A DNA stretch of 35,672 bases from Candidatus Berkelbacteria bacterium (GCA_037128645.1 JBAXWD010000001.1:1-35672); one strand, 5' to 3'. Shown: positions 8,703 through 30,373, counted from the first letter of the stretch. The notes: generated from the sequence alone by a model not told the origin. Translations and numbers: made by a program.

Positions 8703-9374
8703 CTATTTTGCATAAAAACTATACATCTGCCTCTGAATTTTTTTGATTGACTCGTCAAAATCATCAGATCCATATGCGTCTAGATTCCATGATGTTAATT
8801 TGGTAATCTCTTGCTTTATCCCGTCAGCTGTTTCATCCTCACTAATTTCGGACATCAGGTCAGCTATTTGGCTGTAGATTCTTATATATAGTGTCGCTGA
8901 ATTCTGATGTTGACCCTTGACTCTATAGTCTTCCGCTCTAGCATAATCATCAATATAGTTAAATGATCTACCATTTTTTTCAAAAAGTTTTTTGGTCTCT
9001 GCACAGATGAATTCTACATCTTGAGAAATTGTAAATGCGTCTGGATTGCTCCCGGTTTGGGTTAGAGCATCTTTTTCATCTGCAGTCCGGGGTGATATAT
9101 TGAATGTTGTGTTTTGACTATCAGTTATCACTGCCTGGATTCCGGCACCTTGCTGAGTGTTTTCGCCAGTATTAACAGCATGAACAGCTGAGCCACCATT
9201 TGCTGAGTTAGCTTGGTTGGCAGAGCCCTTTTGGCTGACCCTCTGTTTGAACTTCTTGACAACGCTCAGTTTATTTTCAATAAAAATACCAGCTCCACCT
9301 CCAATCAATAGGCCCAGCAAACCTATTGCAGCATCTAGTATTAATTTGTTGAGATTGTAATCTTCGGTTGTCAT
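8703..9374 (-). CDS. hypothetical membrane-anchored protein (223 aa): N-terminal TM helix, low-complexity linker, C-terminal domain of unknown function
   Basis: TM segment LILDAAIGLLGLLIGGGAGIFI, Q/N/S/G-rich linker, GGAG about 12 nt upstream of the ATG. Confidence 0.65.
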   Translation of the reverse strand: MTTEDYNLNKLILDAAIGLLGLLIGGGAGIFIENKLSVVKKFKQRVSQKGSANQANSANGGSAVHAVNTGENTQQGAGIQAVITDSQNTTFNISPRTADEKDALTQTGSNPDAFTISQDVEFICAETKKLFEKNGRSFNYIDDYARAEDYRVKGQHQNSATLYIRIYSQIADLMSEISEDETADGIKQEITKLTSWNLDAYGSDDFDESIKKIQRQMYSFYAK

Positions 9375-9470
9375 TTTATGTTTTTTCTCCAGACAAGAAT
9401 ACTATATACAGTTTAAAACCTAGAGGGCACTGATCATTTTCCTGGATTGTTTTCTCTATTTAATATTGTT

Positions 9471-12400
9471 TCAGGCGCTGCTTGCCTTGCTTACCCTATT
9501 CCAAACTAAACGGCAAACAGCTCTGTAAACATCCTTCCGTTCTTCTGAAGTTAGCTCCAGGGCGTCGAAGACTACTTTATCTAGTTTGGCTCGATCTGGG
9601 AGCGGACATGGTTCCTGTTCCTCGATTGGGATCTTCAGTTGGGGGTCAATTCCACACTCCAAAAATATTGATTCTTTATCCTTTTTCAGCAATTCCAGAC
9701 CAACAATATTTAATTCCATGACTTGCAAACGCTTAACCTCGTATGTCTGAATCTTTAATAATCCACCACCAAATCCAACTCGACCGGTATTAAGTTGAAG
9801 CAAGTATGATACAGATGAATTAAGGAATAATTCAATATGTTTTTCTGTATGGATTTCTTGAAAATTATCACTTACGAAACATTCACCTACATATGAAGTT
9901 CCTACTTCGCTTATCAAGTAGTTAAAATTAATTTTTGCGGGTACCCGGTCACCCAAACTATACCAGTCTCTTCTTCCTGAAACACTCGGGACATCTTTCC
10001 AAAAAACCCCGTCTTTTGTTTTCTGTCGCTCGCCCCACTCAATATATTCTAAAGCCTTTGTACCAGCCAGGGCTTCTTTGCGTTTATTACAAATAAAGAG
10101 CTTGAAGCTGAGTTTTTTAGCATCGATCACAATACTTTTGCATTCACGAGGACTCTTGATTACTGGCTTCAAAAATTCATTTTCGATACCCCAACGACGA
10201 CTTTGTTCCTCATTAATATAAAAGAACTCATTCACACCTGTAGTAAAGCCTCGCCTTACAACAGCAACATCAGACAATTTGACAAGTTTATCTTTCCCTT
10301 TATTTAAGATGGTGAATAGAATATCGGGAGCGCGCAAGAATTTACTTCCCCATTTTTCTCCAATATATTTCCCGACTTTTAGTTTTTCCTGGGTTTCATC
10401 TTCAAATTCAATACCAGATTCTTCTAATTTGTCATTTGTAATCGGATATACCCTAAACATTTCATTGGAAGTTATTTCTTGAGCCTTTTCAATGGCAAGT
10501 AAATTTTCAGTATATATTACTTCCTCGAATGGTTTTTTAAATGCTATAAATTTTACGACATGGTCATCGCTAACACTTCTTTTTCTGTCAGCCAAAGGGG
10601 CGTGTATCACTGAGATAATTGTATTAACATCAGCAGCTTCGAAGCTTCTCTTTGCATGGTTATCTATTATAAGCTCGACTGGGGCACGTTCCAGTAAAAA
10701 CTTCTGAAGCCAAACTCCGTAGCCAACATCAAGCCAAGAGTTAGAGCAAATGAAAGTGTGTATTCCTTGAGGGTTGAGCAGACGCAGTCCACGAATATAA
10801 AAATAAGTATAGAGATCTGATTGGCCATTAATTTTAGTCTTTTGGGAAAAATCGTTTGGGAAATCTAGCTTAACCATTTCGGCAAGCAATCCCTTGTATT
10901 CTTTTTTATCCTTTATTCTACCCGTAGGGTCAGCAATATCTTCTTGTCTAACGTATGGAGGATTTCCGATAATGATGTCAAAGCCTCCTTTTTCAGTGAA
11001 GACCTCAGCGAATTCTATACACCAGACCAAAGGTTTATCTTTCCGCAAAACACTCTTCTGCTCCGAGAGTTCCAATATCTCGTTTTCCAATTGATCGATT
11101 TTTTCTTTGTTTAATTCGAGTGAAGTTTGTTGAGGAACTTCATCACCACCAAATAACGATGTTACTCGGAGAGTTTTCTGGCCCTTGAGACTCTTTAATT
11201 CATTTTGTTTTTCTTGTATCTCATTAGATAGAATTTCCTCATAAATCCTAAGCTCCTTTTGTCTAGGAACATCATAGTTTGCAAAAATAGTTTTATTATT
11301 AAAAAAATCAATTTTAAATGTTTTCAACTCAGTTATCTTCTTTTTTAATGAGCTCGTAAGTGCCTGGTTATAGCCAATAACTGGGAATAGCTTTGACCCA
11401 ACACGTTGAACTAAAGAATCGCCTTGCCGAACCTTAAAGTCAAGACTGGGGAGAATAGGTTTTTGTGACATTCTTAATTCTTCGGGTGCTTCAATAAACA
11501 AAGAGAGCCAAAGCCTTAACTGACAGATCCAAACTGCCCATTCCTTAACTTCAACACCATAAAGAGAGTTGCCAATAATTTGCTTTTTTCGGTCAAACGA
11601 ATCGCGACGGACAAGATCGAAACGTTCCCTTAAATTGTTTTCAACTTCATCTAGAACTTGCATCATTCCAACCAAGAAAGCACCTGAGCCAACTGCGGGG
11701 TCGCAAATAGCTAGGTTCTCGAGTAAATCCAAAGTTTCTATAGCTTCAACCTTAGAAAAGCTACCTACTTTTTGCTCATTATCCTTCTCACTTTCACGGA
11801 AGAATAGTTCGTAGAGGTTCTCTGATCTGATGTTGGAAGTTTGGTTCTTTTGCAACCATTTAACGAGACTTAACCTACACATATAGTCAACTTCGGTACG
11901 GGGTGTGTAAACGGCACCATCAGCCTTATTTACGATACGTTCAAAGATTATCCCCAAGAATTCCGGATTGAGCTGGAGATCTGAATCATCTATTGAGCTT
12001 TCCTCAATCGTGAAACTATGCGAAAACAGAAAATCAAAAAATTCGCCGATTTCCTGGTCTGGAATATACCAGCCATTTCCGTCATAGCCATCCTTCTCTC
12101 TAAAAAGGCCACCGTTTAGATATGGGGCAAGCTGTAGCGCTGAATTAATTTCTGCTGGTAAGTGTTGCCGAGGAAAGAACTTATTGTTCAGTGCTTCAAA
12201 GAAAAGGAGAGAGAGCCAATCTTCGTAAAATCTATTTTCAACTTTAGATTTTAGATAGCTGCTAAATAATTTTTGAATGAAATTCTGGTCGTCACCGAGC
12301 CAATTCCTTTTTTGAATGAATCCGAGAAAGATTGTTCGGATTGAGAATAAGAGAACGAAATCTCTTGCTTTTTCTTCGGTTATGCTATTCTTGACCGCCG

Positions 12401-16312: not shown

Positions 16313-16575
16313 CTTTGTTCCTTGTCTGTTTACGATTTTGTTGCTTTCAGCGTACCACTTTACAGGGTAAAAATAAAGATTTACCGCTGTGTTTAATTAA
16401 GCTCCTTCTTTACTTTTTTGTCCAGTCCACCAATTTATGGCTGTTATGAAAAATCAGATTGAATCCTGACTGGATCCTTGCTTTTTCAGTTTAGATTTGC
16501 TAGATTGCGCTTGTACGCAAACAAGCTGTAAATTTCGTCAATTGCTTGATTAAAAGTGGAGGGGAGGGAGAATAT

Positions 16576-19506
16576 GTGCCAACAGGCCCAATCGATCCTC
16601 ATTTGCCTCCTGCAAGCTCAACACTACCTTCGATCTCAACATTTCAAGGCAGTTTTTTAACGGCCTATACTCCTTCTCCAAATGATAATAAGTTTGCTCT
16701 AGATCTATTACACGCAATCCAGAATCATACTCCATTAACTCTTTTACAAAAGATCTTTTTGGTTGTAGTCACAATACCCGGACCGATTGGTTGGAAACTA
16801 TCGTTTTTCAATTTCATAAGTTCGATCGGATCCACCGGTTCCAGTAGTTCGAACTCGCTGGCTCATTTTCTTATCATTTTAGCTGTCATCTGCATTGTTT
16901 TGATTCTTTTATTTTTGCTTCGCAAATTCGGCTGGCGATTCCTTGTTAAAAAACAACCTTTAATTTTTCTGGAATTAACCTTTCCCTCAATCACAACCAT
17001 AACCGCTAACACAACTGAGCAATTATTTACCTTGCTTCACTCTTTGGCAACACAGCAAAAATTTATTCATAAAATAATTGGGCATAAGAAACAATATGCG
17101 CTCGAGATTGTCGCCTCCAAAGAACAAGGAATCAGATATATACTAACTGTGCCGGATTCCGATTCTTCGTCTATTCAGAAAAGTTTGTTGTCATATTTGC
17201 CCGGACTAAAAATCAACAAAATCAAAGATTATCTACCGGCTGACCTTAATCCGCCAAAGAAAAATAAAAATTCTGTCAGACACCGCATCATCGAACTTAA
17301 ACTCTCCAATGATTATCTTTTGCCCTTGCAGGAATCAAAAACCCTCAAAGAACATGACCCGATTGCGTATCTAACCGGCAACATGACCAAACTGGAGCCC
17401 GATGAACTGATGGTTTTTCAAGTAGTTGTCTCTCCAATTACCAAATCCAGCCATAGCTCGGTTGTCCGGCATATCAATAAAATCAAACAGCGAATTTATA
17501 ATAAGCAAACTCTAGACGATAAACTTTTCGTCAATCACATATTGAATACGCTTAAAGTTTTTCAAATAATATTCATTGCCATTGCGAATTTTATCAAAGC
17601 GGTTGTCGTCTTTTTTGTTAGCCTGCCAATAGCTCTTTGGGATACAAAGGGTGAGAGTGTGCCTTTCTTCAAAAACGAGGCGAAAGTGATTGTAATCGAA
17701 GATTCTCTATCTCCCAGAGAACAAGAACTCCAAGTTGCAGTTAAGGAAAAAATTGACAAACCAATGTTTGAAACTTCACTTCGGCTGTTAATCTGTTCCG
17801 ATGACAAGGAAGGATGCAATTCCAGAGTCTCCGGTTTCCTGGCTTCATTCGGATCACTGAGCAGTACTTATCAAGCTTTGGTTTTGAAAGGTAAAAGCCT
17901 ATTCTCGCTTATTCAGCAACCGAAATTGGCTCTAGTAAGCAGACAAATATCGCTCTCAAATAACCCTATCCTGTCCGCTTCGGAGCTGACCGATATTTAT
18001 CATTTTCCGTATACCGAAACAACCAAGACTGAGGATCTGGTTAAATCCAAGAACCAGCCTTTGCCGGCTCCATTATCTTTTAAACAAACCAATCCGGAAT
18101 TTGATAATGTCTTCGCCAAAAATAGCTACGGTGGAACGGAAACTGTTGTCGGGCAGACTCTAAATGAGAGAAGACGCCATACATATATTTTGGGTGCTAC
18201 TGGCTCCGGTAAAACCACCTTGCTATCTACCATGATTTATCAGGACATCATAAACGGTAAAGGCCTGGCTGTGATTGATCCTCACGGACAATTGGTCGAA
18301 AAAATATTGTCGGTTATTCCCAAAGAGCGAATCAATGATGTGGTTTGGTTTGCTCCCGATGATGATGCTTATCCGATTGCTTTAAATCTGCTCGAACTGC
18401 CTAAAGATAATTTGTTAACTGCAAGCCAACTGCAGAAACAAAAGTCATTAGTGGCCAGCAGTATAATCTCCATTATTCAAAAGTTCTACGATAAAAAGTT
18501 CTTCGGTCCAAGAATGGAATATGTCCTACGGAATACAATTCTAACCGCTCTGGAAACTCCGGACCCGACGCTGGCTACAATTCTGGATCTTCTGACAAAC
18601 AAAAGCTACCGCAAGGAAATTATTAAGGGCTTGGAAAACAAGATATTAAAAGATTACTGGTTAAACGAATTTGAGAAACTGGGCAGCATGCAAAGAAACA
18701 ATGTCATTTCTCCAATCACCAACAAAATCGGTGGGATATTAGGCTCGCCGATCAATTACAATATACTGACACAACCGAAAAGCACCATCAATTTCGATCA
18801 AATAATGAACGAAGGAAAGATTCTGCTTTGTGATTTGTCCAAGGGGAAAATCGGCGAGGATGAATCAAGTTTCTTTGGCTCCCTGGTTATTGCCAAGATT
18901 CAGCTGGCGGCATTAAAAAGAGCCCAAATGCCCGAAGAAGAGCGGAATGATTTCTTTCTCTATGTCGATGAGTTTCAAAACTTTGCCACCCAGTCTTTTT
19001 CCGAACTGGTATCCGAAGCCAGAAAGTATCGGCTGGCAACAATCCTGGCCCATCAATCAATTTCTCAAATTGAAGACCGTGACATTATTAAAGTCATCTT
19101 GGCCAATGTCGCAACGGTCATTTGTTTTAAAACAGCCAACCCCGAAGACGAGCAATTTATCTTACCGATCTTTTCGCCCGAAGTCTCAAAACACGAGATC
19201 GGTAACCTTCCGCTTTATAACTTCTATATGAAAATATCAGTCGGCCAGGCCCAGGACACATTTTTAGCACAAGCGGACAACTTTACCGTTAAAGGCAGTG
19301 AGAAAACAGCGGAACTTGTGATTAATGAATCAAGAAAAAGATACGCAACAATTATTAACCAGACAAAGCAACGCAAAGAAAAACCTAAAGAAAAGGCAAC
19401 TGTTAAAAAGCCCGAAACGGCAAAAGCAAAGGTTGTGAAACCGCGAGAAAACAAATCAAAAGATACCAAACAAACTGGCAGTAATTTACTCCCGCGGCGG
19501 GAGTAG
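16576..19506 (+). CDS. type IV coupling protein-like (VirD4/TraD/TraG-type) membrane ATPase
   Basis: N-terminal hydrophobic segments (LAHFLIILAVICIVLILLFLL). Walker A YILGATGSGKTT, Walker B-like FFLYVDEFQNF, ILAHQSISQI, and a lysine-rich tail. The ORF track starts at TTG 16546. GTG at 16576 is preferred because the purine-rich SD GGAGGGGAGGGAG (16558-16570) sits 5 nt upstream. Confidence 0.78.
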   Translation: MPTGPIDPHLPPASSTLPSISTFQGSFLTAYTPSPNDNKFALDLLHAIQNHTPLTLLQKIFLVVVTIPGPIGWKLSFFNFISSIGSTGSSSSNSLAHFLIILAVICIVLILLFLLRKFGWRFLVKKQPLIFLELTFPSITTITANTTEQLFTLLHSLATQQKFIHKIIGHKKQYALEIVASKEQGIRYILTVPDSDSSSIQKSLLSYLPGLKINKIKDYLPADLNPPKKNKNSVRHRIIELKLSNDYLLPLQESKTLKEHDPIAYLTGNMTKLEPDELMVFQVVVSPITKSSHSSVVRHINKIKQRIYNKQTLDDKLFVNHILNTLKVFQIIFIAIANFIKAVVVFFVSLPIALWDTKGESVPFFKNEAKVIVIEDSLSPREQELQVAVKEKIDKPMFETSLRLLICSDDKEGCNSRVSGFLASFGSLSSTYQALVLKGKSLFSLIQQPKLALVSRQISLSNNPILSASELTDIYHFPYTETTKTEDLVKSKNQPLPAPLSFKQTNPEFDNVFAKNSYGGTETVVGQTLNERRRHTYILGATGSGKTTLLSTMIYQDIINGKGLAVIDPHGQLVEKILSVIPKERINDVVWFAPDDDAYPIALNLLELPKDNLLTASQLQKQKSLVASSIISIIQKFYDKKFFGPRMEYVLRNTILTALETPDPTLATILDLLTNKSYRKEIIKGLENKILKDYWLNEFEKLGSMQRNNVISPITNKIGGILGSPINYNILTQPKSTINFDQIMNEGKILLCDLSKGKIGEDESSFFGSLVIAKIQLAALKRAQMPEEERNDFFLYVDEFQNFATQSFSELVSEARKYRLATILAHQSISQIEDRDIIKVILANVATVICFKTANPEDEQFILPIFSPEVSKHEIGNLPLYNFYMKISVGQAQDTFLAQADNFTVKGSEKTAELVINESRKRYATIINQTKQRKEKPKEKATVKKPETAKAKVVKPRENKSKDTKQTGSNLLPRRE

Positions 19507-19524
19507 AAATTCAATACCTTTTGA

Positions 19525-19575
19525 GATCAAAATCGTTAAATATTTTGATCCCTACCTATACAAGTATGGTGTAGG
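19525..19575. repeat. two adjacent inverted repeats (9-bp perfect stem at 19525-19550; imperfect hairpin at 19551-19575) between the coupling-protein and relaxation-family genes
   Basis: gatcaaaat-cgttaaat-attttgatc, followed by cctacctatacaagtatggtgtagg. Confidence 0.5.
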
Positions 19576-19631
19576 TATGGATTGGTAAAAAAGTATATAA
19601 CTAACTACAAACTATTTCATCATCAAACTAA

Positions 19632-20405
19632 ATGACCAACTCACCAAACATAACTAAAAAACAACAACAGATTCTCCACCTACTATTTCAATTCAGATTT
19701 CTAAACCGTCCCCAAATTCAACAATTTCTAAAACACAAAGATCGTAGAGCAACAAACGATTTATTAAGTGATCTAGCAAACAAAGAATATATCGGTCGCA
19801 TTTATATTGAAACATTTCCAGAAAAGACCAAACCGGCAGTCTACTATCTGATTAAAGCAGGAGTACACTTTCTGAAATCAAAAGGATTTGACCAAAAGCA
19901 ATTGCATAAATTGTATTATGAAAACAAGCGATCGGAGAATTTTATCAGCCAATCATTACTGCTGGTCGATGTTTATCTCGATCTTTCAAACCGCAAAGAC
20001 GACAAGGCAAAGTTTACAATGGCAATTGCCAGCGATTACCCGAGTCACAGTTTAGGCGAATTCCTCGGGGATCTTTTGCCCAGCGCTTACATCGAACAAG
20101 AAAGTAACGAAGACACGGAGCATTATTTTTTGGAAATTCTTCCCGATGTACCAATTGAGAGACTGAGGCCAAGAATAAGAAAATACCTAGATTTTTACGA
20201 CAGCAGCGAATGGGAAGGTGAAACCAGCGAAGATTTTCCCACAGTTATTATGATTTGCCCGGATGTTAGTACCTTAATTTATGTTAAGCGATATTTGAAA
20301 AGAAAGTTTATCGAAATGGACGGGGAATCCTTGATTATTCACTTAACTACAATTGATAAATTTAAGGAGCATGGTCTAACCGGCGACATCTGGGAGAAGG
20401 TTTGA
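19632..20405 (+). CDS. replication-relaxation (Replic_Relax) family protein, 257 aa
   Basis: The N-terminal winged-helix-like pattern ITKKQQQILHLLFQFRFLNRPQIQQFLKHKDRRATNDLLSDLANKEYIGRIY matches my recollection of that family. It lies immediately downstream of a coupling ATPase. Confidence 0.55.
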   Translation: MTNSPNITKKQQQILHLLFQFRFLNRPQIQQFLKHKDRRATNDLLSDLANKEYIGRIYIETFPEKTKPAVYYLIKAGVHFLKSKGFDQKQLHKLYYENKRSENFISQSLLLVDVYLDLSNRKDDKAKFTMAIASDYPSHSLGEFLGDLLPSAYIEQESNEDTEHYFLEILPDVPIERLRPRIRKYLDFYDSSEWEGETSEDFPTVIMICPDVSTLIYVKRYLKRKFIEMDGESLIIHLTTIDKFKEHGLTGDIWEKV

Positions 20406-20431
20406 TATATTTATAAGAAGAAAGGCTTAAT

Positions 20432-21082
20432 ATGGAAATTGAAATCGAAGAATATCTGGCACTATCGGCTCCATACACAAAACACTGGATTCAAAAAATT
20501 GTTGACGCATGTTCTGAGCGGATAGATTTTAAGGATGCTAAAATCGGAATCTATTTGGTTTCTAAATCAGAAGAGTTGGAGGACTTAAACGGCGCCAGAG
20601 GTTACTGCCCCTCCGGTTCGCTTATTGAAATATCTGTCGACTTACTTAATCCTCATTTGGATTTTGACTACATTAAACTAACTATAGCTCATGAGCTTTA
20701 TCACCTGGCACGACGGCAATCCGGTATCAAGACTGGCGAAGACACGGTTTTGGAATGCCTGATAAGCGAAGGGCTGGCTGATAGATTTGTCTACGAAACC
20801 TATGGGCTACCTCCCGTCTGGGTTTCAAAAATTGATAAAACAGAGGCAATTAAACTATTAAAGAAAATATCTCCTATTTTAGACAAAAAAATTGACGATG
20901 AAATTTATAGCGATTGGTTTTCAAGAGGTTCTGAAAAACTCAAAATTAGAAAATGGTCGGGCTACGATCTCGGTTATGCATTGGTTTTGCAAATACTAAA
21001 GAAAGACAAAAAGTTAAGTTCGATCTCATTCCTTGATGTTCCTGCTAAGGAAATCGCCGAAATTACCGTGTTGTTACAGTAA
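20432..21082 (+). CDS. predicted Zn-dependent metalloprotease (HExxH; DUF2268-like), 216 aa
   Basis: TIAHELYHLARR contains HExxH. GAAAGG SD. Confidence 0.55.
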   Translation: MEIEIEEYLALSAPYTKHWIQKIVDACSERIDFKDAKIGIYLVSKSEELEDLNGARGYCPSGSLIEISVDLLNPHLDFDYIKLTIAHELYHLARRQSGIKTGEDTVLECLISEGLADRFVYETYGLPPVWVSKIDKTEAIKLLKKISPILDKKIDDEIYSDWFSRGSEKLKIRKWSGYDLGYALVLQILKKDKKLSSISFLDVPAKEIAEITVLLQ

Positions 21083-21193
21083 ATTACTGCCATTGACTAG
21101 AGAAAGCTCTGTTTACTTGGTTGACAACCAATGATGATATTCGGGAGGATAGAATAGACGCTGAGATCTGGGGATAATCTTTGTTCTCTAGCT

Positions 21194-21232
21194 AAATGGA
21201 AACCTACAAACTGTTAGTGGTTTCCATTTTTT
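21194..21232 (+). terminator. Rho-independent terminator after the metalloprotease gene
   Basis: An 11-bp stem aaatggaaacc/ggtttccattt with a 14-nt loop, running into a T tract. Confidence 0.6.
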
Positions 21233-21257
21233 GTTGACTTTTATTTTATAATTTGCT

Positions 21258-21622
21258 AGTTTGAAATTAGTCGCAGATGTAGCTCGAGCACTGGAAGGGA
21301 GAAGCCTTTGGGCTGACAGTGTCGTTTGACACGCGAAGCTGATTGATCAGCAACCTTAGCCACCTGCTATTAAGCGCCGCCTTCATGGGGTTGACCAAAA
21401 TAGTAGACCTAATTTGGACCCTAGAGTCCAAGATCAATCAGTTGTTGCACAGCGTGCAAGTTGGTGTTTTCACACGCGTGTGGGAAAAAACCAGAGACGC
21501 ATCTGCTGCGCTGAGCTCCTCGCATAGGGGGTCGGCGCACGCCATCATTTAAGGCGACTGCTCAGGCGGTTGCTATCCTATCCGAGAGCTGATCAACGCA
21601 CCGATCAGCTCTCTTTACTTTT
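21258..21622 (+). ncRNA. candidate structured non-coding transcript (~360 nt), family not recognised
   Basis: G+C-rich, ORF-poor segment between an upstream terminator and its own terminator. Several local hairpins: gtgtc-gtt-gacac, gctgat-tg-atcagc, cacacgcgtgtg. The only ORF (21343-21552) starts at TTG with no SD. Confidence 0.3.
21584..21622 (+). terminator. Rho-independent terminator (plus strand)
   Basis: An 11-bp perfect stem gagagctgatc/gatcagctctc, loop aacgcacc, then tttactttt. Confidence 0.6.
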
Positions 21623-21631
21623 AATTAAGAT

Positions 21632-21665
21632 AAAAAAACGCCCGTAGCTGGGTAAGCTGCGGACG
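21632..21665 (-). terminator. Rho-independent terminator for the 149-aa gene (minus strand), convergent with the previous one
   Basis: The minus strand reads cgtccgcagc-ttaccca-gctacgggcg (10 positions, one mismatch, one GU) followed by TTTTTTT. Confidence 0.55.
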
Positions 21666-21688
21666 ATGGGGGCTAGCGGTTATTGCCG

Positions 21689-22138
21689 CTAGTAGTTCTG
21701 ATGTGGTTCCGGCACTTCTTCCTGACTCGCTGAAGGTGGCTCCTCTTTGGCACGTTGCCTTGGCAGATAGGGTAACTTCTCTCCGGTGTAGACATCTTCC
21801 GTTCTACAGAGCTTCACTAGGCCCTTAGTTGGGTGACGATGATAGAGCCAGAATTCGTCTTCGACGTTGACGTCGAGGAGCTCGTATTCGACAAGTTCCT
21901 TACCATGGATCGCCATGATCCCTGTCTTCGTCAGGTCGGCCAGAAATTGTTCTATCTGGTCGATGTTCATCAAAGTCTCGGTAAATTCGATCCGAAGTGC
22001 TACTCGGTCGAATCGCCTGAGAAAATGAAAGAACCACTCTTCTACGCTGGGCAGGCCATAACAGCCCGCATTTTCGATGATTCTACAGGCATCGAGATAT
22101 GGTAGCCCTGTAGTGTCCATCAATATTGCGTGAGGCAC
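21689..22138 (-). CDS. hypothetical protein (149 aa), GTG start
   Basis: ORF-track protein. AGGAGG lies 9 nt upstream of the GTG. Intermediate G+C content. No domain recognised. Confidence 0.6.
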   Translation of the reverse strand: MPHAILMDTTGLPYLDACRIIENAGCYGLPSVEEWFFHFLRRFDRVALRIEFTETLMNIDQIEQFLADLTKTGIMAIHGKELVEYELLDVNVEDEFWLYHRHPTKGLVKLCRTEDVYTGEKLPYLPRQRAKEEPPSASQEEVPEPHQNY

Positions 22139-22305
22139 CTTAATCGACCTCCTGTCAGTGATGTTCTATCCGCAATCACTTTATTCCAAAAAGCTCAAAT
22201 AGTCAATGATCTCGAGCCCTATGTTTTATGTAGAGAAGTATGATGAAGTATGAACTTTGACCACAAAAAAGGCCTGAGAACTTAAAGGCTCCCAGGCCTA
22301 ATTGA

Positions 22306-22626
22306 TCAGTACTCTTCGGCTAACATGACGGTCATCACACGCTTGCAGGTCGGTGAGAGCGGATCCTCAAAACAGGTCAACTGGTCGTTGTAATAATCAA
22401 TCTTCCAGAAGACCTTTTCACCATGCCATTCTATCTTACCCATATCGTGCTCAAAATAAGGATCATTGGCCTCGCTAAAATCGTTAAAATCTCTGACCTT
22501 TTGCATTAACCCAATGACATCAGGTAAGTCAGCTGCTCCGCAAGTCATCGTAACCCCGAAGCCTAACTTTCTAAACACATCGTTTTTGTCTGCTATTTCT
22601 GCATTCTTTACAATCTCTAATTCCAT
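22306..22626 (-). CDS. DUF3768-family protein (106 aa), a family typical of plasmids and conjugative elements
   Basis: Pattern VRDFNDFSEANDPYFEHDMGKIEWHGEKVFWKIDYYND...RVMTVMLAEEY matches the DUF3768 consensus as I remember it (NDP..EHDFG...FWKIDYYD...RVLTIMLA.EY). AGGAGG SD. Confidence 0.72.
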   Translation of the reverse strand: MELEIVKNAEIADKNDVFRKLGFGVTMTCGAADLPDVIGLMQKVRDFNDFSEANDPYFEHDMGKIEWHGEKVFWKIDYYNDQLTCFEDPLSPTCKRVMTVMLAEEY

Positions 22627-22687
22627 ATTATCCTCCTATTATTAATACCCTCTGCGATTCGACCTACCGCCTGTCTAGACATAGAAC

Positions 22688-22764
22688 AGAACAATGGCTG
22701 AATTCGGGTCAAGGTGGAGCACCCCACGAGATGAACGACCTTGAGGCGAAACAGCCATTGTTCT
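22688..22764. repeat. 13-bp perfect inverted repeat separated by 51 nt, with a nested 6-bp hairpin
   Basis: agaacaatggctg (22688-22700) pairs with cagccattgttct (22752-22764). Inner tcaagg/ccttga pair. Confidence 0.6.
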
Positions 22765-23181
22765 ATACAATTGGAAGACATGGCGGGAGAAATCTCCATA
22801 ATTATCTGGTGTATTCGCGAGCCAGTATCTTTTGCGTAAATGCAATTGGAGTAAAAGTTGCTGAGTGAGCAATGATGTGCGGATGAATAAGCAAGCACTC
22901 TCTGAAAGAGTGTGCGAAGCGCATGAAGAAGCACAACCAACCAAGCCTTGATTCCTGTTTTCAAGGCAAGATTTCAAGACGAATAAGCGTCTAGCGAGGC
23001 ACGAGATTGTCGCGAAATGAGTTGAAGAAAACGAGCCTTATTGAACTTTAAACTTATCAACCCCATATACGCTTTTTGGATAGACTTTATCGGCACTCGT
23101 GGTTCAATCGGCTGATCAACGAGTCCGCATTTCCATTTTCGGATCAATATATATGCCATGCCTGATAACCCGAGAACATTT

Positions 23182-23211
23182 TTGACTGGAAATCCGTAAT
23201 ATTGTGATAAT
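23182..23211 (+). promoter_or_regulatory. sigma70-like promoter (TTGACT, 18 nt spacer, GATAAT with upstream TG)
   Basis: -35 at 23182-23187, -10 at 23206-23211. Confidence 0.4.
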
Positions 23212-23253
23212 ATTGATACAGAATCAGGCTCAGAGATAAAACCTACACGAATG

Positions 23254-23282
23254 TTGACTTTTTCTCTCTGATATGGTATGAT
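23254..23282 (+). promoter_or_regulatory. sigma70-like promoter (TTGACT, 17 nt spacer, TATGAT with TGn extension) upstream of the DGR target gene
   Basis: -35 at 23254-23259, -10 at 23277-23282. Confidence 0.5.
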
Positions 23283-23313
23283 TCAAAGTTAATTTATGTA
23301 CCTTTACAAGATT

Positions 23314-23362
23314 GGAACAAGCATTTTGCTAATAATCACTTTGTTATCAAAATGCTTGTTCC
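23314..23362 (+). promoter_or_regulatory. 14-bp perfect stem-loop in the target-gene leader; the right arm contains the ATG at 23352
   Basis: ggaacaagcatttt (23314-23327) pairs with aaaatgcttgttcc (23349-23362). 21-nt loop. Confidence 0.5.
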
Positions 23363-24317
23363 AGACAAGGGACACAGCCTGCCTTCAGGCAGATCACATA
23401 GTGGAAGGATGATGACGATGTCCAATGAGGCATTGATCCCGTCCGTGACGCACCCAAAACGTCGTGAAGTGCTGCGCAACTGCGCAGTCGGTCTGGATAG
23501 GGCCGGACTGGACGAGGATGGACTCCAGCAGATCGTGCACCGCGCTGGCGAATTGCAGCAGGGCATGATCGAGTTGGTCAAGCGCCTGTCGCTTTCCAAC
23601 CAGTTCGCGAGCGAAGAGACGGCGTCCAACTACACCTACCCACCTGAGTACAAGGGCCCGAAGCCGATCGAGGAACAGATCACGGCACTCGCCAAGATGC
23701 TCGACCTCGACCCGGCCTCCGCCCTCGCGTTCGCAATGAACCTACCAGCTCTTCCCGAAGGTGCCGAAGGATGGTTTGCCATCCCGTCGCCCGTCGCACT
23801 GGCTGCCAAGCACTTTGCCAATCTGGCAGACCCCGCCGAGCAGAACTGCGCCGGAATCAGCCTGATCCACGCCAAGATCGCGGCATCGCGGAAGTTCTAC
23901 AACTACCGCGAAGGCCAGATCACGACGACACAGTTGCGGGTTGCAATCCGCACAGCCGAGGCGCTGGCCCAGATCACCGAGACCCAGAAGGGCGACATCC
24001 TGATCATCGCTGCCCAGCTCGGGCTTCGCCACCGCGGCAAGTCCGTTCGTCGGGCACGTGAAGTGATGAGCGCCAATGAGTTCGGTCTCGGCTCACTGAT
24101 GATCGGCTCCATTGTACTGACTCACCCCGAGCGGTTTGTCCGCTGGGAGCAGTTGCACATGGATTGCGCCGGCGATGAGTTCAGTCCGGGGGCCGGAGGC
24201 GACTTCGTCAACGCGCCGTACTTACGCTTCGGCGACGGCGAGGTCCGGTTCAGCACCTACTGGGTCAGCAGTGCCCACGCCCACTATGGCTCGGCCTCGG
24301 CTTTCCTCCCGCAGTAG
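23352..24317 (+). CDS. DGR target (variable) protein, G+C-rich, no signal peptide seen; the C-terminal ~43 aa are encoded by the VR
   Basis: Long ORF whose last 130 nt form the VR. The start is uncertain: ATG 23352 has no SD and lies inside the hairpin. The ATGs at 23409, 23412 and 23418 follow GGAAGG (23403-23408), and 23418 has the best spacing. Confidence 0.8.
   Translation: MLVPDKGHSLPSGRSHSGRMMTMSNEALIPSVTHPKRREVLRNCAVGLDRAGLDEDGLQQIVHRAGELQQGMIELVKRLSLSNQFASEETASNYTYPPEYKGPKPIEEQITALAKMLDLDPASALAFAMNLPALPEGAEGWFAIPSPVALAAKHFANLADPAEQNCAGISLIHAKIAASRKFYNYREGQITTTQLRVAIRTAEALAQITETQKGDILIIAAQLGLRHRGKSVRRAREVMSANEFGLGSLMIGSIVLTHPERFVRWEQLHMDCAGDEFSPGAGGDFVNAPYLRFGDGEVRFSTYWVSSAHAHYGSASAFLPQ
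24186..24315 (+). repeat. DGR variable region (VR)
   Basis: 130-nt gap-free alignment to 24746-24875. Of the 21 mismatches, 19 lie where the TR has A. Confidence 0.88.
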
Positions 24318-24381
24318 AAGTTTGTACCTTGTTTCTTAAATCCCTTGAGACTTTTGGCATCTTGATACTTGTCTCTCGGGT

Positions 24382-24397
24382 ACCGCCGATAGGCGGT
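24382..24397 (+). promoter_or_regulatory. GC-rich 6-bp hairpin with a 4-nt loop (accgcc-gata-ggcggt) downstream of the VR
   Basis: Seen directly, 67 nt after the VR end. In the BPP-1 DGR paradigm a GC-rich hairpin with a 4-nt loop lies downstream of the VR. Confidence 0.35.
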
Positions 24398-24408
24398 TCG
24401 ACACATCC

Positions 24409-24446
24409 GGGCTACCAGTCACCATACTGGTAGCCCGTTTTCTTTT
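24409..24446 (+). terminator. Rho-independent terminator of the target gene
   Basis: An 11-bp perfect stem gggctaccagt/actggtagccc, loop caccat, then gttttctttt. Confidence 0.6.
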
Positions 24447-24745
24447 GCAAAATTAAGTAAATATGGTATATACTCTAAACGAAAGTAGGCTAATGCACAG
24501 TCGTCTAAGGATTGCTGTCGCCGAAATTTCAAGTCAACAAAACAGATCGGAATTTTAGTGTTTACGGATACTAAAAGTGCATCTGTGTTGAGGAGATACT
24601 GCTTGCCCTTGCCTGGTGCAGGTGTCGCTTCGGCGACTGCTGCCAAATAAAATACAGAAAAGAGAATATATAGTTTGGTTCTCCCGAGGAGAGCTAAAGG
24701 CAAAATTCAATTTTCAGTGCACATAGATGGGCAGAGGGCAATTTA

Positions 24746-24875
24746 CCGGAAGCCGATGGCGACTTCGACAACGCGCCGTACTTCAACTTCAACGACGGCA
24801 AGGTCAAGTTCAACACCAACTGGGTCAGCAATACCAACGCCAACTATGGCTCAGCCTCGGCTTTCCTCCCGAAGT
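24746..24875 (+). repeat. DGR template region (TR)
   Basis: Invariant, A-rich copy of the VR. In the VR reading frame it is rich in AAC/AAT/AAG codons (...FNFNDGKVKFNTNWVSNTNANYGSASAFLPK). Confidence 0.88.
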
Positions 24876-24949
24876 CTCTCCTTAATTAAAGAAAATACGC
24901 CCAGTCCGCCAAACAGCGGATCAAGCGTATTTTCTTGTTCTTTTTGTGG

Positions 24950-25297
24950 CTATTCTTTGGTTGATTTAATCCAGCCACCGAGCATACGACCGATTTCGTC
25001 GAGATCCATTTCAATCGATGTATAAGTTTTAAGCTCTATTGTTTTAACATCTTTCATCAAACGGACAAAAACCTTTAACAAGCTGAGGTTGGAACTGGCA
25101 TCTATCAGAGATGGAAGTTTCTCGTCCTTACCAAGTTGGCTGGCCTTGAGAATGCCCTCAATAACTTTCAAAAGATAATTTTCTGATTTGAGAAATATTG
25201 AGTAGCGATCCTGTTTTGGCACTTTGGTGCCGAGAGTGTGGAATTGTTTATATAATTCATAAGCCTTTTTAAAAATCGGGATGTCAAATTCCTGCAT
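24950..25297 (-). CDS. avd: DGR accessory variability determinant (Avd-like four-helix-bundle protein), 115 aa
   Basis: Size, composition and the FKKAYELYKQFHTLGTKVPKQDRYSIFLKSENYLLKVIEGILKA pattern fit the Avd-like four-helix-bundle family. It lies next to the TR and RT. GAAAGGAAC SD. Confidence 0.75.
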   Translation of the reverse strand: MQEFDIPIFKKAYELYKQFHTLGTKVPKQDRYSIFLKSENYLLKVIEGILKASQLGKDEKLPSLIDASSNLSLLKVFVRLMKDVKTIELKTYTSIEMDLDEIGRMLGGWIKSTKE

Positions 25298-25310
25298 AGG
25301 TTCCTTTCAT

Positions 25311-25952
25311 ATGAAATATTACAAAAATATATTTGAAAAAATTATCAACCCGAACAATTTGTTCACCGCTTGGGATGAGTTTAAAATAGGCAAACTCCGC
25401 AAGACCGATGTTTTAGAATTCGTAGCTGGGCTGGAAGAAAATATCTTTAAACTCTACCGTGATCTAAAATACCACAGTTACAAACACGGTGTCTATCGGT
25501 CATTCTATATTACCGACCCGAAATTAAGAGAAATTAACAAGGCAATGGTCAGAGATAGAGTTTTACATCATGCCGTTTTTCAGATTCTATACCCGATGTT
25601 TGAGCCGACATTCATTTCAAATTCTTTTTCTTGCCGTGACGAAAAGGGAAATCACAAGGGCGTTGATTATCTAGAAAAAATAATCCGGGAGGTTAGCAGA
25701 AACTATACCCGAGATTGCTTTGTTATGAAATGCGATATACGAAAATTCTTTGGTTCGGTCGATCATCGGATTTTATTGGAAATTATTCAGCGAAAAGTTA
25801 AAGATGAAGATTTTAATTGGCTGATTAAGGAAATCATTGGCAGTTTTGGTTCAAAAACCGACTATCAACCACAATTACAACTGTTCGATTTTCGAGTCGA
25901 AAATCCAGAGAGAGAGAGAAAGAAAGAGCAGCCTTCGGCTGCTTGGGGGTAG
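25311..25952 (+). CDS. DGR reverse transcriptase, N-terminal fragment (motifs 1-3), ending at an in-frame TAG after a G5 run
   Basis: FYITDPKLREI, DRVLHHAVFQILYPMFEPTFISNSFSCRDEKGNHKG, VMKCDIRKFFGSVDHRILL. ATG 25311 is preferred over the track start at 25281, which would overlap the avd start. Confidence 0.85.
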   Translation: MKYYKNIFEKIINPNNLFTAWDEFKIGKLRKTDVLEFVAGLEENIFKLYRDLKYHSYKHGVYRSFYITDPKLREINKAMVRDRVLHHAVFQILYPMFEPTFISNSFSCRDEKGNHKGVDYLEKIIREVSRNYTRDCFVMKCDIRKFFGSVDHRILLEIIQRKVKDEDFNWLIKEIIGSFGSKTDYQPQLQLFDFRVENPERERKKEQPSAAWG

Positions 25953-26431
25953 GTATTCCCATTGGCAATTTAACCAGTCAACTCTTCGCTAATGTATATA
26001 TGAATGAGTTTGACCAGTTTGTAAAACATAAATTAAAAGTCAAGCATTATTGCCGGTATACTGATGATTTTGTTGTCGTATCTGATAATCGTGAATATCT
26101 CCAGGACTTATTGCCGAAAATTGAATCGTTTATTAATGAAAATCTGAAACTCAAGTTACATCCGGAAAAAGTTTCAATCCGTAAATATCAGCAAGGTGCT
26201 GACTTTCTCGGCTATGTGATTTTGCCTCATCATCGCTTAGTCAGAACAAAAACCAGGAAAAGGATATTTGAAAAGCTCAAAAACAGGGTTAAGGAATTCA
26301 AAAATGGGCAAATTAGCGAAGAAAAACTTAAACAATCACTGAATTCGTTTCTGGGTGTTTTTTCACATGCCGACTGTCATGATTTAGAGCAGGAGCTGAT
26401 AAACAAATTTTGGTTTTGGCTTTCAGAATAA
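25943..26431 (+). CDS. DGR reverse transcriptase, C-terminal fragment (motifs 4-7) in the -1 frame
   Basis: DGR-diagnostic IGNLTSQ (25961-25981), catalytic YTDD (26057-26068), ADFLGY. This frame is open from 25829, so it overlaps the end of the N-terminal fragment. Confidence 0.85.
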   Translation: MGVGIPIGNLTSQLFANVYMNEFDQFVKHKLKVKHYCRYTDDFVVVSDNREYLQDLLPKIESFINENLKLKLHPEKVSIRKYQQGADFLGYVILPHHRLVRTKTRKRIFEKLKNRVKEFKNGQISEEKLKQSLNSFLGVFSHADCHDLEQELINKFWFWLSE

Positions 26432-26843
26432 AATTCTGATAACTCAGCAATCCTTGACAAATATTTTCAAAATTTAAATTTATTGCAATACTTGATATGA
26501 TGGAGCAGGAATAGTGAGAGTTGGTATTTTTCGAAGTTTACTTCGGAAACATGGTTGCGCATTAAACCCGCCTCGTGCGGTCAAAAACAACGGTGGCTTA
26601 CGGGCATATCAAGAGCCGCTTTGCGGGAGCGATTAAAGGCAGACAAGCGACGAAATCTTGTTTCCTTTAAAAGCTTGCTATTCCAACAAAAAGCTTTCAA
26701 TCATGGAAGCTTTTTGTTATCTGTGTGTGCGTGGATTAATCCGATTAATTCATACCGGTCAATCCTATGACATTCCTAACTGGCAACTAATAATTTACTT
26801 ATCTAGTACTTACTATTTTAAATAGAATTATTTGAACACCCTC

Positions 26844-26873
26844 TTGACACTGTGCATATATACTTAGTATACT
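26844..26873 (+). promoter_or_regulatory. sigma70-like promoter (TTGACA, 18 nt spacer, TATACT) for the recombinase operon
   Basis: -35 at 26844-26849, -10 at 26868-26873. Confidence 0.5.
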
Positions 26874-26904
26874 GTTTATATATACACACTTGGGAGGGTG
26901 TTCA

Positions 26905-27261
26905 ATGTTAGATCAAATGCAACTCACGGATCTGCAAAACATGGCTGTTGAAAGTAAAACAGCTGCCAAATTTGCAATTGACCTCTCAAAGAACGCTACA
27001 ACAAACATACAAAACAGTTTTGCTGTCTCGGATAGAAAATCGCTTGAAAGAACTCTCAGTAATATCTTCCCGTCACAAAAAGATGAGAACAATCTTCAAA
27101 GGGCAAGAAGAATCCTTGGAGATCTTGCGACTTCTTTGTCAGACCCGGAACTTGAAACATATTTAGTCGAATTTGAATATCTCATAGATTCATGGCTCGA
27201 TGAATTTGAGAAAAATATTTTCAATGACAAAACATTAATGCAATTATTAAAGGAGGGATAG
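26905..27261 (+). CDS. hypothetical protein (118 aa) abutting the recombinase gene
   Basis: ATG 26905 is preceded by GGGAGGG (26892-26898); the track start at TTG 26890 is less likely. Its TAG stop is immediately followed by the recombinase ATG. Confidence 0.6.
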   Translation: MLDQMQLTDLQNMAVESKTAAKFAIDLSKNATTNIQNSFAVSDRKSLERTLSNIFPSQKDENNLQRARRILGDLATSLSDPELETYLVEFEYLIDSWLDEFEKNIFNDKTLMQLLKEG

Positions 27262-28845
27262 ATGGACAATTCGTTATCGAAAAAAAGTTTGGCTGATTTA
27301 GGTAAAGCAGTTATCTATTTGCGAGTTTCAACCGAAGAGCAGGTTGATAATTATTCACTAGAAACGCAAGAGAACATTTGCAAAAAAGAAGCTGAGCGAA
27401 TGAAAATTGAAGTTGATCGAGTCTTTCGAGAAGAAGGTCGATCAGCCAAAACAATTACCGGTCGACCGGCATTGGTTGAGTTACTGGAATACTGCAGAAA
27501 AAACAAGCGGGAGATCGGAGTTGTTATCGTCTATCGCTTGGATAGAATCTCAAGACAAACGGCTGATTATCTGGCAATTAGAAAAAAGCTTGCCGAGTGC
27601 GAGATCGCACTCATATCAGCCACGGAGCCAACAGGTAACTCGCCTACAGAAAAGTTTGTAGAGACCATGCTGGCAGGTTTCGCACAGATGGACAATGATG
27701 TACGTTCTGAGCGGTCTAAGAACGGCATGAGAGCCAGATTCTTGGCTGGCCTAAGCAATGGCTATGTCCCGATGGGATATCTTAACCGAAACGGCTATGC
27801 GATCAAAGATCCGGAAACATTCGATCAAATGAAAAAAGCTTGGGATTTAATGGCAACCGGCACAAAATCTCTTCGAGGGATAACTGACCTTCTTATTAAG
27901 CAAGGAATGAAAGGAGGTCGTAGAAACAACAAGAAAGATCACATTCTACGTCCACAAACGATGAATGCCATCTTTCGCAATAAATTCTACACCGGCAAAA
28001 TCATTTCGAAGAAATACGAGCTCGAAGTTCAAGGGCAGCATCCTGCCATGGTCACCGAAGAACAGTTTTATAAGGTGCAATCAATCCTTGACGGTCGAAA
28101 TACTCAGATTGCTTCACCATTGACCAGAAGAAATGTCGATAACCCTGATTTTCCACTCAGGCGTATTGTAAAATGCACAAAATGCGGCGCTTCGATGACT
28201 GGTGGTTGGTGCAAAGGAAAACGAAAACACTATGCTTTCTATTTCTGTCTTAACAAGTGTAAGGGTTTAAATACTTCTAAGGCAAAAATCGACGAAGAAA
28301 CAACAAAGACACTTGATGGGATTAAACTTCATGACAAATCTGTTGATCTGTTCAACGCCTGGCTGCGCAGAAAATACTACGAACGACTTTCTTCATTACA
28401 GAAAAGACGGGATGTCGCTGATATCGAGTTAAAAAAGCTTTACGAGTTCCGACAGTCGCTAATAGAAAAGAATATCTCCGGAGTTTATTCGGACGATATA
28501 TTCAAAGAGCAGAACCAGATTGTCCAAGATAAGATAAAAATCCTTCAGATAACAAAAAATGATGACATGATCCAAAAGTATAATTTGGAAGCCATCACTT
28601 TATTTGTGAAATCAAAGCTGGACAATGTTACACGAACCTTCGAAAAATCCAATCTGCAACAGAAGAGAATGCTCTTGTGTTCAATATTCCCCTCTGGACT
28701 GCACTGGAACGGAAGTACCTACTTGAACACCCAGATTAGTGTGTTCTACACCGAGTTATTACGTTTAAATAAGGGGGGTGTCGTGTTTGGTGGACCCAAG
28801 CGGATTCGAACCGCTGACCTCTTCGCTGCCAGCGAAGCGTTCTAG
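27262..28845 (+). CDS. large serine recombinase (integrase-type), 527 aa
   Basis: Resolvase catalytic domain AVIYLRVSTEEQ...YRLDRISRQ, recombinase domain, Cys cluster CTKCGASMTGGWC...FCLNKC, and a C-terminal region compatible with a coiled coil. AGGAGGGA SD. The last 58 nt are antisense to tRNA-Ala. Confidence 0.88.
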   Translation: MDNSLSKKSLADLGKAVIYLRVSTEEQVDNYSLETQENICKKEAERMKIEVDRVFREEGRSAKTITGRPALVELLEYCRKNKREIGVVIVYRLDRISRQTADYLAIRKKLAECEIALISATEPTGNSPTEKFVETMLAGFAQMDNDVRSERSKNGMRARFLAGLSNGYVPMGYLNRNGYAIKDPETFDQMKKAWDLMATGTKSLRGITDLLIKQGMKGGRRNNKKDHILRPQTMNAIFRNKFYTGKIISKKYELEVQGQHPAMVTEEQFYKVQSILDGRNTQIASPLTRRNVDNPDFPLRRIVKCTKCGASMTGGWCKGKRKHYAFYFCLNKCKGLNTSKAKIDEETTKTLDGIKLHDKSVDLFNAWLRRKYYERLSSLQKRRDVADIELKKLYEFRQSLIEKNISGVYSDDIFKEQNQIVQDKIKILQITKNDDMIQKYNLEAITLFVKSKLDNVTRTFEKSNLQQKRMLLCSIFPSGLHWNGSTYLNTQISVFYTELLRLNKGGVVFGGPKRIRTADLFAASEAF

Positions 28846-28864
28846 CCAACTAAACTATGGGCCC
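28788..28864 (-). tRNA. tRNA-Ala (anticodon GGC), CCA encoded
   Basis: The reverse complement is GGGCCCATAGTTTAGTTGGCTAGAACGCTTCGCTGGCAGCGAAGAGGTCAGCGGTTCGAATCCGCTTGGGTCCACCA. It folds by hand into a 7/4/5/5 cloverleaf with anticodon loop CT-GGC-AG, T-loop TTCGAAT and the G3:U70 alanine identity pair. Confidence 0.9.
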
Positions 28865-29548: not shown

Positions 29549-30373
29549 TTATTTTTTAATAACTCTAATAGCCGAATCGGGGCAAAAACGGAAACAATTT
29601 CCACAGGCTATACATTTTTCGATATCAATATCAGGAATAGGTGTGCCATAAACACCTAGTGTTTTGCCAAAAGACAGTGCCTTAACCGGACATTTAAGTA
29701 CGCAAATTCCGCAACCCTTGCAATACTTTGGCACAATAACAGCCGTTCGTTGCGAATTCTTTCTAATAACTATTTCATCGCAAGTATCATACTCTGGCTT
29801 AGTAAATTTCTTAGTTTCAAGTTGAAAATCATATGCAAAATCAAAAGCTAGCTTTGATTTGTCTGCTAAATCCTTATTTTTAGCAAACTTTTTTCCTAAC
29901 TGAGTAGAAATTATCTCCCACATCGCGTTTTTGGGGTAATCAAGAAAATTATTCGCCAAGACTCCGAGAGCTAAAATATTTTGATTTTTATTGCCAAATT
30001 GCTCCTCAGCAAGTTTAGTAGCGGGTATTGCAAAAACTCTGGAGTTATTAAGAGAAAATTTTTGCCTAGAAATTGTAGATGAATCGAAAAGTAGTTGAGT
30101 CCTCGATCCAATATAGCCTTCAATGGTTTTAATGGCCCGTCGGCGTAAAACCATTACAATGTCGGCGGTATCGAATTTGGGATAGGTAATTTCTGACTTG
30201 GAAAATTGGATAAAAGATACCGAAGGGGTTCCACGTTGCTCAGGACCGAATTGGGGAATGTAACTGACGAAAAAGCCAGCAGACACAAGAGCGGTCGACA
30301 AAACCTTGGCAATTGTTTGAATGCCCTGGCCACCTTCACCAGCAAGAACAATTTTTGTTATTTCATTTTTCAT
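29549..30373 (-). CDS. 2-oxoacid:ferredoxin oxidoreductase gamma subunit fused to a 2x[4Fe-4S] delta/ferredoxin domain
   Basis: IVLAGEGGQGIQT gamma-subunit N-terminus. CKGCGICVLKCP and CIACGNCFRFCP clusters. ATG 30373 (MKNEITK...) is preferred because the track start at 30430 would overlap the beta gene by 53 nt. Confidence 0.8.
   Translation of the reverse strand: MKNEITKIVLAGEGGQGIQTIAKVLSTALVSAGFFVSYIPQFGPEQRGTPSVSFIQFSKSEITYPKFDTADIVMVLRRRAIKTIEGYIGSRTQLLFDSSTISRQKFSLNNSRVFAIPATKLAEEQFGNKNQNILALGVLANNFLDYPKNAMWEIISTQLGKKFAKNKDLADKSKLAFDFAYDFQLETKKFTKPEYDTCDEIVIRKNSQRTAVIVPKYCKGCGICVLKCPVKALSFGKTLGVYGTPIPDIDIEKCIACGNCFRFCPDSAIRVIKK

Follow-up and report, generated by a model that had tools for sequence, protein, structure and literature searches.

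Results

A DGR cassette with a divided reverse transcriptase

The window, by which we mean the whole 35,672-nucleotide stretch of DNA analysed here, is the entire contig C1 of a 743-kb MAG (140 contigs, 72% complete) from an ultra-small bacterium. The nearest relatives of its proteins carry the names Berkelbacteria, Patescibacteria and other CPR bacteria. Between 23352 and 26431 lies a complete DGR cassette, made up of a target gene with a VR, a template repeat (TR), the accessory variability determinant bAvd and a reverse transcriptase (RT); coordinates are collected in Table 1. TR and VR form a pair of 130 nt that is 84% identical, with 19 of the 21 mismatches running from TR-A to VR-N. An earlier interpretation of this DNA, made without comparison to other genomes and called here the sequence-only reading, had taken the VR as a sign of past activity, and the TR/VR pair is genuine. 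The TR has one VR partner only, a second VR for it being absent from the 743-kb MAG. The target gene has no Pfam match and no recognised domain.

The RT is homologous to the Bordetella bRT (PDB 8ub7, E = 3.4e-49), its best solved relative. Several hallmarks of a DGR are present together, namely an RT with GIPIGNLTSQ and YTDD, an adenine-specific TR/VR pair and an Avd gene. An uninterrupted RT frame is the one that is absent, and two ORFs in different frames stand in its place. In every respect tested except this interruption, the cassette matches a DGR of the BPP-1 type, and it is a DGR in the OFF state. It shares with the DGR of Bordetella phage BPP-1 (TR, VR/mtd) a homologous RT, the motifs GVGIPIGxLTSQ and Y-x-DD, Avd, and adenine specificity between TR and VR. 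Unlike BPP-1, it has its avd gene on the opposite strand, a target without a recognised domain, an interrupted RT ORF, and a loop of about 43 rather than 11 residues within the RT.

Table 1. Features of the DGR cassette in the window, with the evidence for each.
Feature	Position	Strand	Evidence or remark
DGR target gene	23352..24317	+	VR 24186-24315 at its 3' end; repeat-pair detection
Template repeat (TR)	24746..24875	+	Repeat-pair detection
Accessory variability determinant bAvd, intact, 115 aa	24950..25297	-	Pfam PF22296, E = 2.4e-17
RT N-terminal part, fingers, motifs 1-3, 213 aa	ORF 25281/25311-25952	+	Pfam RVT_1 positions 8-102
Degenerate GA microsatellite, c + 11 GA-equivalent units, 23 nt	25905..25927	+	DNA alignment with intact relatives
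GC-rich hairpin of 7 bp, agcagcc-ttc-ggctgct, directly 3' of the tract	25927..25943	+	Fold, covariation
RT C-terminal part, motifs 4-7, 162 aa	ORF 25943-26431	+	RVT_1 positions 118-205
G5 run, codons ttG GGG Gta (L-G-V) in the downstream frame	25945..25949	+	Gap-free alignment to tctgggg/tttgggg

The N-terminal part of the RT ends at TAG 25950-25952 and aligns to residues 3-160 of bRT 8ub7. The C-terminal part is read in the -1 frame relative to it (25829..26431, plus strand, with the stop at 26429-26431), contains the conserved GIPIGNLTSQ, which begins at 25952, together with YTDD, and aligns to bRT residues 172-315. ORF and Pfam analysis here agrees with the sequence-only reading, which had put the split at this TAG and motifs 4-7 in a -1 frame open from 25829. 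The (GA)n tract gagagagagagaaagaaagag, the 7-bp hairpin and the string t-ggggg-tag that it had described beside the split were all recovered, and translation confirms that the ORF becomes continuous with one extra G or with a -1 slip. Both halves are otherwise intact, as had been supposed: the RT keeps 91 of the 92 columns that are invariant in 20 intact relatives, and those relatives themselves miss 0-5. Because both frames are open from 25829 to 25950, the window sequence by itself cannot place the site of the shift; the relatives place it.

The DGR is contained in an apparent integrated mobile element that spans 16546-28864. A TraG/VirD4-like ATPase (16546-19506) and a relaxase-like gene (19632-20405) belong to the same presumed element, and the 3' end of a large serine recombinase (27262-28845) overlaps a tRNA-Ala(GGC) gene (28788-28864) on the opposite strand. 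A stretch of higher GC content, 0.47-0.52, lies at 21-25 kb. The ENA contig L005:1-64 joins the window at 24763, where the TR is fused to a different upstream sequence absent from the MAG; this could represent a second gene with a VR, or a chimera joined at the repeat. Assembly L006 has a 1-nt deletion at window position 24822, in a G run within the TR, which may be a genuine variant or an assembly error.

Comparison with relatives places the frame error in a GA tract

The closest intact RTs are P0001/L090, P0002/L091, L023 and L111, at 64-70% protein identity. They read ...QLQLFDFRGENRERE...RAAFGCSGVGIPIGN, and their hairpin and 'ggggtagg' are in the downstream frame of the window. The hairpin plus "GGGGTAGG" is gap-free in intact relatives, where it encodes AAFGC-x-GVG; GVGIPIG occurs in the Bordetella bRT as well. 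From the hairpin to GIPIGN, the window and intact relatives agree in DNA length, and the alignment of the window's 'cttgggggtagg' to 'ctctggggtagg' or 'ctttggggtagg' in relatives needs no gap, the latter form being that of L181. All length variation is confined to the interval between "gaaaat" and "gcagcc".

In-frame relatives have c+(GA)k with k = 7 (degenerate), 10, 16 or 25, corresponding to 15, 21, 33 and 51 nt. The window tract carries three substitutions, G>C at 25906 and G>A at 25920 and 25924, with a pure (GA)6 at 25908-25919. L181, which has a pure c+(GA)11 and the same hairpin as the window, is out of frame in the same register. On the evidence of these alignments the frame error lies in the GA tract at 25905-25927, which has one GA unit too many.

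The sequence-only reading had instead set the frame switch at the G5 run and considered four options there. One of these, phase variation of a homopolymer, survives in kind as a repeat-based on/off switch; the proposed G5/G6 repeat does not, as no relative compared shows length variation at that place. The repeat concerned is the (GA)n tract, which had been treated as context, so that the four options stand in part only. The comparison with orthologous RTs that had been suggested as a check shows the split to be real and its site to be the GA tract rather than G5. Since the G5 segment aligns to relatives without gaps, the run arose by substitution. G5 is ruled out as an indel site by the same alignment, and as an unusual feature by its frequency, which is below chance (10 such runs in the window versus 28.9 expected from shuffles).

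Slippage of the ribosomal P site at G5 finds no comparative support either, for relatives have G4 there and intact genes read the segment as G-V-G. Among relatives that share the split the run is not conserved, L181 having tttgggg, and intact relatives have tctgggg. The shift site has no slippery heptamer of the form X XXY YYZ, UGG GGG UAG permitting only a P-site slip from GGG to GGG. No stimulatory structure lies 5-9 nt downstream of the run; the strong hairpin is upstream, and a weak second stem includes G5 itself. No Rfam family matched within 24300-26900.

GA tracts recur at the same spot in related RTs

Metagenome contigs were scanned, blind to frame, for GAGAGAGAGAG followed after a gap of 12-42 nt by P-I-G-N-L-T. 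The scan returned at least 119 loci with the tract pattern, and 104 of the loci listed had both RT halves mapped by tblastn. Among these 104 scorable RTs listed, 21 are in frame, while the others are out of frame, the remainder being 1 in 44 of them and 2 in 39. As an independent sample, 400 genomes representing species of the phylum were scanned with the same pattern and contributed 7 loci in six genomes, 2 in frame and 5 out. Together the scans give at least 111 scorable RTs with a GA tract at the spot between motifs 3 and 4, with 23 in frame among those listed. Viral contigs gave no match to the scan pattern.

The halves on either side of the tract are well preserved. All 104 listed metagenome RTs together have only 3 stop codons in their aligned halves and show no other frame break; the 7 species-genome loci have no stop codon there. 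Within an ORF, (GA)n is a repeat whose unit length is not a multiple of three, as at 25905-25927 of the window, and whichever of the three frames is used, it reads as stop-free Arg-Glu repeats. In 86 of the 89 out-of-frame alleles among the matches listed, no stop interrupts the downstream frame back across the entire tract, and tract length alone therefore decides the register. No further GA or CT tract of five or more units occurs elsewhere in the approximately 165 RT genes examined. In the linkers of L131 and L184 a (CT)n run abuts the (GA)n run, as in ctctctctctctctcgagagagag, which makes a long inverted repeat.

The in-frame share falls below one third (21 of 101 dereplicated loci among the matches listed, p = 0.008, a figure that is only suggestive because the relatives are not independent of one another). 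This deficit of in-frame alleles suggests that the register matters. RTs without the tract are in frame in 76 of 76 cases, a weak control because that search favoured intact genes. The same tract occupies the same spot in more than 100 related genes, about four-fifths of them out of frame and yet intact, and it looks like a built-in on/off switch.

Near-identical relatives differ by whole repeat units

Locus L122 is in frame with a tract of 20 nt; L099 and L132, whose tract is 18 nt long, are out of frame. The loci are identical across TR, avd and RT; what separates them is one GA unit, seen as a 2-nt gap, and 19 substitutions in the VR, 18 of them at TR adenines. (The comparison sets aside the 5' end of the overlap, which diverges but lies far upstream of the cassette.) The TR of this lineage is only 23% A, against 18 of 19 VR changes at its adenines. 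With the cassette otherwise identical, both retrohoming and the change of one unit must have been very recent in one lineage. Tract differences of whole units occur in other near-identical pairs as well (L139 and L163, L169 and L182, L188 and L191), and in the first two of these pairs they toggle the frame. Such differences were seen in relatives; the eight assemblies of the window population are identical in their tract.

A proposed repeat switch

We favour the reading that the window RT is an OFF allele of a slipped-strand (GA)n repeat switch, and from the sequence comparisons above we give it a probability of about 0.6. The (GA)n microsatellite, situated in the loop between RT motifs 3 and 4, encodes (Arg-Glu)n. 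As no frame of the tract contains a stop, the number of units by itself sets the register of palm and thumb relative to the fingers. In the subfamily of the window the RT is in frame when the tract c+(GA)k has k = 1 mod 3. At k = 11 the window exceeds such a value by one unit, so translation should stop at TAG 25950; no full-length RT is expected, and hence no mutagenic retrohoming. Slipped-strand mispairing at replication, the mechanism that we infer for the unit changes, would restore ...VENPEREKERAAFGCLGVGIPIGN... by loss of one GA unit or gain of two. The tract would also have an adaptive role as an on/off control. The three point substitutions leave only a pure (GA)6 in the window copy, so switching there would probably be slow.

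The window population is uniformly OFF

Seven further contigs, taken from NCBI, ENA, Logan and JGI assemblies, have the identical pair of ORFs, 213 aa and 162 aa; they are 99.97-100% identical to the window and represent two haplotypes, distinguished by A or T at 30273. All eight assemblies share the same tract and, where it is covered, the same VR, and all are OFF. No near-identical protein in frame occurs in a collection of 5.8 billion sequence clusters, and neither protein search nor exact look-up of both halves found an allele of this population that is ON or in an alternative register. This absence of length variation in eight assemblies on two haplotypes counts against a living switch at this locus. 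With its tract worn to a pure (GA)6, every assembly OFF, the same VR throughout and no ON protein, the window copy is read as a slow or locked OFF allele: it may switch only slowly, or interruption of the tract may already have locked it.

The strongest competitor accepts the same lesion, an extra GA unit, and makes it a dead end, in which the tract is frozen, the RT is permanently off and the cassette is beginning to decay as a pseudogene. The three substitutions in the tract, the shared VR of the eight OFF assemblies and the lack of an ON allele in the protein collection all fit this account, and the second DGR RT of the same genome is out of frame too. The sequence-only reading had listed a recent inactivating mutation among its options, and this matches the present condition of the copy, which is OFF, otherwise intact and static in its VR. 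Decay itself is what the cassette does not show: the RT has no other lesion, and avd, TR and target gene are all intact. Dinucleotide runs of six units can still slip, as is general for simple sequence repeats, and the worn window copy may retain some ability to switch. We regard the dead end as rather unlikely, at something over one chance in five.

GA tracts are otherwise nearly absent from the 743-kb genome, and its three long ones all lie in its two DGR loci. The second DGR, also complete, is at G000:C24:8866-11025 (L002 covers 9083-12034), with its TR at 9588-9722, its VR at 8866-9000, and 19 of 20 mismatches running from A to N. Its RT is out of frame at a different place, between motifs 2 and 3, where a strongly folding palindromic element of about 125 nt (gtcattccgag...ctcaggatgac, -40.7 kcal/mol) precedes a pure GA tract, 11-12 units long, at 10320. 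No close relatives of this second RT were present among the loci fetched for RT comparison. A pure (GA)12 lies between genes at G000:C24:7753-7776, about 200 nt upstream of the target gene of the second DGR; it is preceded by a palindrome (ctcgagttcgaagttccgaactcgag) and has gtaaggag on its other side.

A covarying hairpin follows the tract

A stem-loop of the form NNNNNCC-TTC-GGNNNNN is kept after the tract in 11 distinct relatives, with 92% of cells paired. Both sides change in three pairs, from A-U to G-C and from G-C to A-U; one such pair occurs six times as A-U and five times as G-C. Covariation scores 0.338, as compared with 0.21 in shuffles (2 of 500 reach the score) and no more than 0.138 for slid controls. 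The local 66-nt fold has z = -1.15, which is not significant alone, and support for the hairpin comes from covariation only. The hairpin is read in two frames, giving AAFGC in some of the intact genes and PSAA in one other. Covariation together with reading in two frames points, from the alignments, to selection at the level of nucleic acid. Besides 25927-25943 of the window, the hairpin is found at the same spot in L090, L091, L092, L142, L181, L185, L193, L194 and L222; other subfamilies have unrelated GC-rich hairpins in the same place.

The linker of about 43 residues that contains the GA tract and the hairpin corresponds to an 11-residue loop, residues 161-171, in bRT. In the AlphaFold2 model of the intact relative P0001 the linker has pLDDT 43-54, as against an overall mean of 82, and is the only long internal segment of low confidence. 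The model fits a surface loop that would tolerate 5-25 Arg-Glu pairs. In a Magasanikbacteria RT (L037:3466-3606) the motif 3-4 loop contains an in-frame palindromic repeat element (CHPRENGNP...DPRLRGDD), and the loop may be a general hot spot for insertion.

A switch by DNA slippage does not need a conserved hairpin, and the presence of one counts against that mechanism in its pure form. The hairpin could promote slippage or act on RNA, and it keeps alive, at low probability, a model of recoding without any change in the DNA. Here the ribosome or RNA polymerase would slip 2 nt on the GA tract, aided by the hairpin, or -1 at GGG-G before UAG, yielding some full-length RT. A GA tract re-pairs perfectly after a 2-nt shift and is stop-free in all frames, and any -1 event between 25905 and 25949 would give an open frame. 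The two OFF registers are about equally common among the matches listed (44 and 39), and the hairpin, besides covarying, is translated in two frames. Structure is also stronger in the 40 nt behind the tract, at a mean of -8.4 kcal/mol, than in other windows from these genes, at -4.2 kcal/mol. This structure is, however, equally strong in in-frame alleles (-8.9 kcal/mol) and in out-of-frame alleles (-7.9 and -8.6 kcal/mol), and many tract-bearing loci have no room for any hairpin. Recoding is also opposed by the deficit of in-frame alleles, by the unit changes seen directly in the DNA of relatives, and, for the -1 slip, by the G5 run, which lacks conservation (L181 has tttgggg in the same register), a heptamer, a structure at 5-9 nt and an Rfam match. 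We consider recoding improbable, though not negligibly so, and attach the same low odds to the view of GA tract and covarying hairpin as a recoding device with which off-register genes still make a little full-length RT. If that were true, the register of the tract would adjust how fast targeted hypermutation proceeds in many CPR lineages and would not abolish it.

Two further explanations fare much worse. The RT might consist of two separately translated polypeptides, a fingers piece and a palm and thumb piece restarted at TTG 25943; both halves are intact and this TTG lies 7 nt before the stop, but in the 89 out-of-frame alleles listed the stop of the upstream frame is scattered (19 at 12 nt or less from the tract end, 43 at 13-60 nt, 27 further away), no stop-start arrangement is conserved, in-frame alleles exist in the same lineages, and we know of no split DGR RT; we regard this explanation as very improbable. 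An indel of sequencing or assembly, which the sequence-only reading had also allowed, is scarcely credible: repeats and homopolymers are classic sites of error, but the pure run is only 13 nt, and the seven contigs beyond the window, the products of at least four pipelines applied to several samples, show the same tract, G5 and split, with both haplotypes defined at 30273 represented.

Discussion

Phase variation through dinucleotide repeats inside genes is known from other bacteria. In the Mycoplasma mycoides M.MmyCI methyltransferase (mod gene), an (AG)12 tract runs into TAA, and (AG)10 is in frame and active (PMC3498834). Helicobacter pylori oipA varies in phase through intragenic CT repeats (PMC10564699). 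The GA tract of the DGR RTs resembles both in that a dinucleotide repeat lies inside the ORF, the number of units sets the frame, off registers soon meet a stop beyond the tract, and near-identical genomes differ by whole units, as seen here in relatives. It differs from both in its position, mid-gene in a loop between catalytic motifs, where it is translated as (Arg-Glu)n in the ON state, and in the gene that it would gate, which is that of a mutator enzyme, the DGR RT, and not one for restriction-modification or a surface protein. It is found in environmental CPR/Patescibacteria, off registers make up about 79% of the matches listed, and a covarying hairpin follows the tract. The window population differs further in being uniform in its tract across eight assemblies.

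Recoding by slippage has its own precedents. One is the -1 frameshifting of dnaX, a slippage-based form of recoding. Penno et al. in 2015 reportedly described hairpin-dependent transcriptional realignment in a Roseiflexus IS element, and Tamas et al. in 2008 are said to have described the rescue of genes frameshifted at poly(A) in endosymbionts. With these systems the DGR RTs have in common a slippery repeat beside a stable stem-loop, bacteria with small genomes, and split genes that are otherwise intact. Unlike them, the window has no canonical heptamer or homopolymer, and its hairpin comes after the GA tract and before G5. The unit changes are seen directly at the level of DNA, and the window case is known from DNA alone.

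In the literature searched, which leaves out most subscription journals, no paper was seen that connects DGR RTs to simple-sequence repeats or to phase variation. DGRs are currently treated as constitutive diversifiers, and surveys discard cassettes whose RTs are interrupted. The message of the window locus is by itself modest, as it offers a worn and currently OFF example, in which the G5 run is a red herring. The covarying hairpin beside the tract hints at a further layer. The GA switch gives a testable link, between the register of the tract and the turnover of the VR. If the reading is true, a heritable and stochastic switch would govern whether targeted hypermutation in CPR bacteria is on or off. 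Many DGRs taken for 'broken' would in that case be at rest, not dead, and counts of DGR activity in metagenomes would change.
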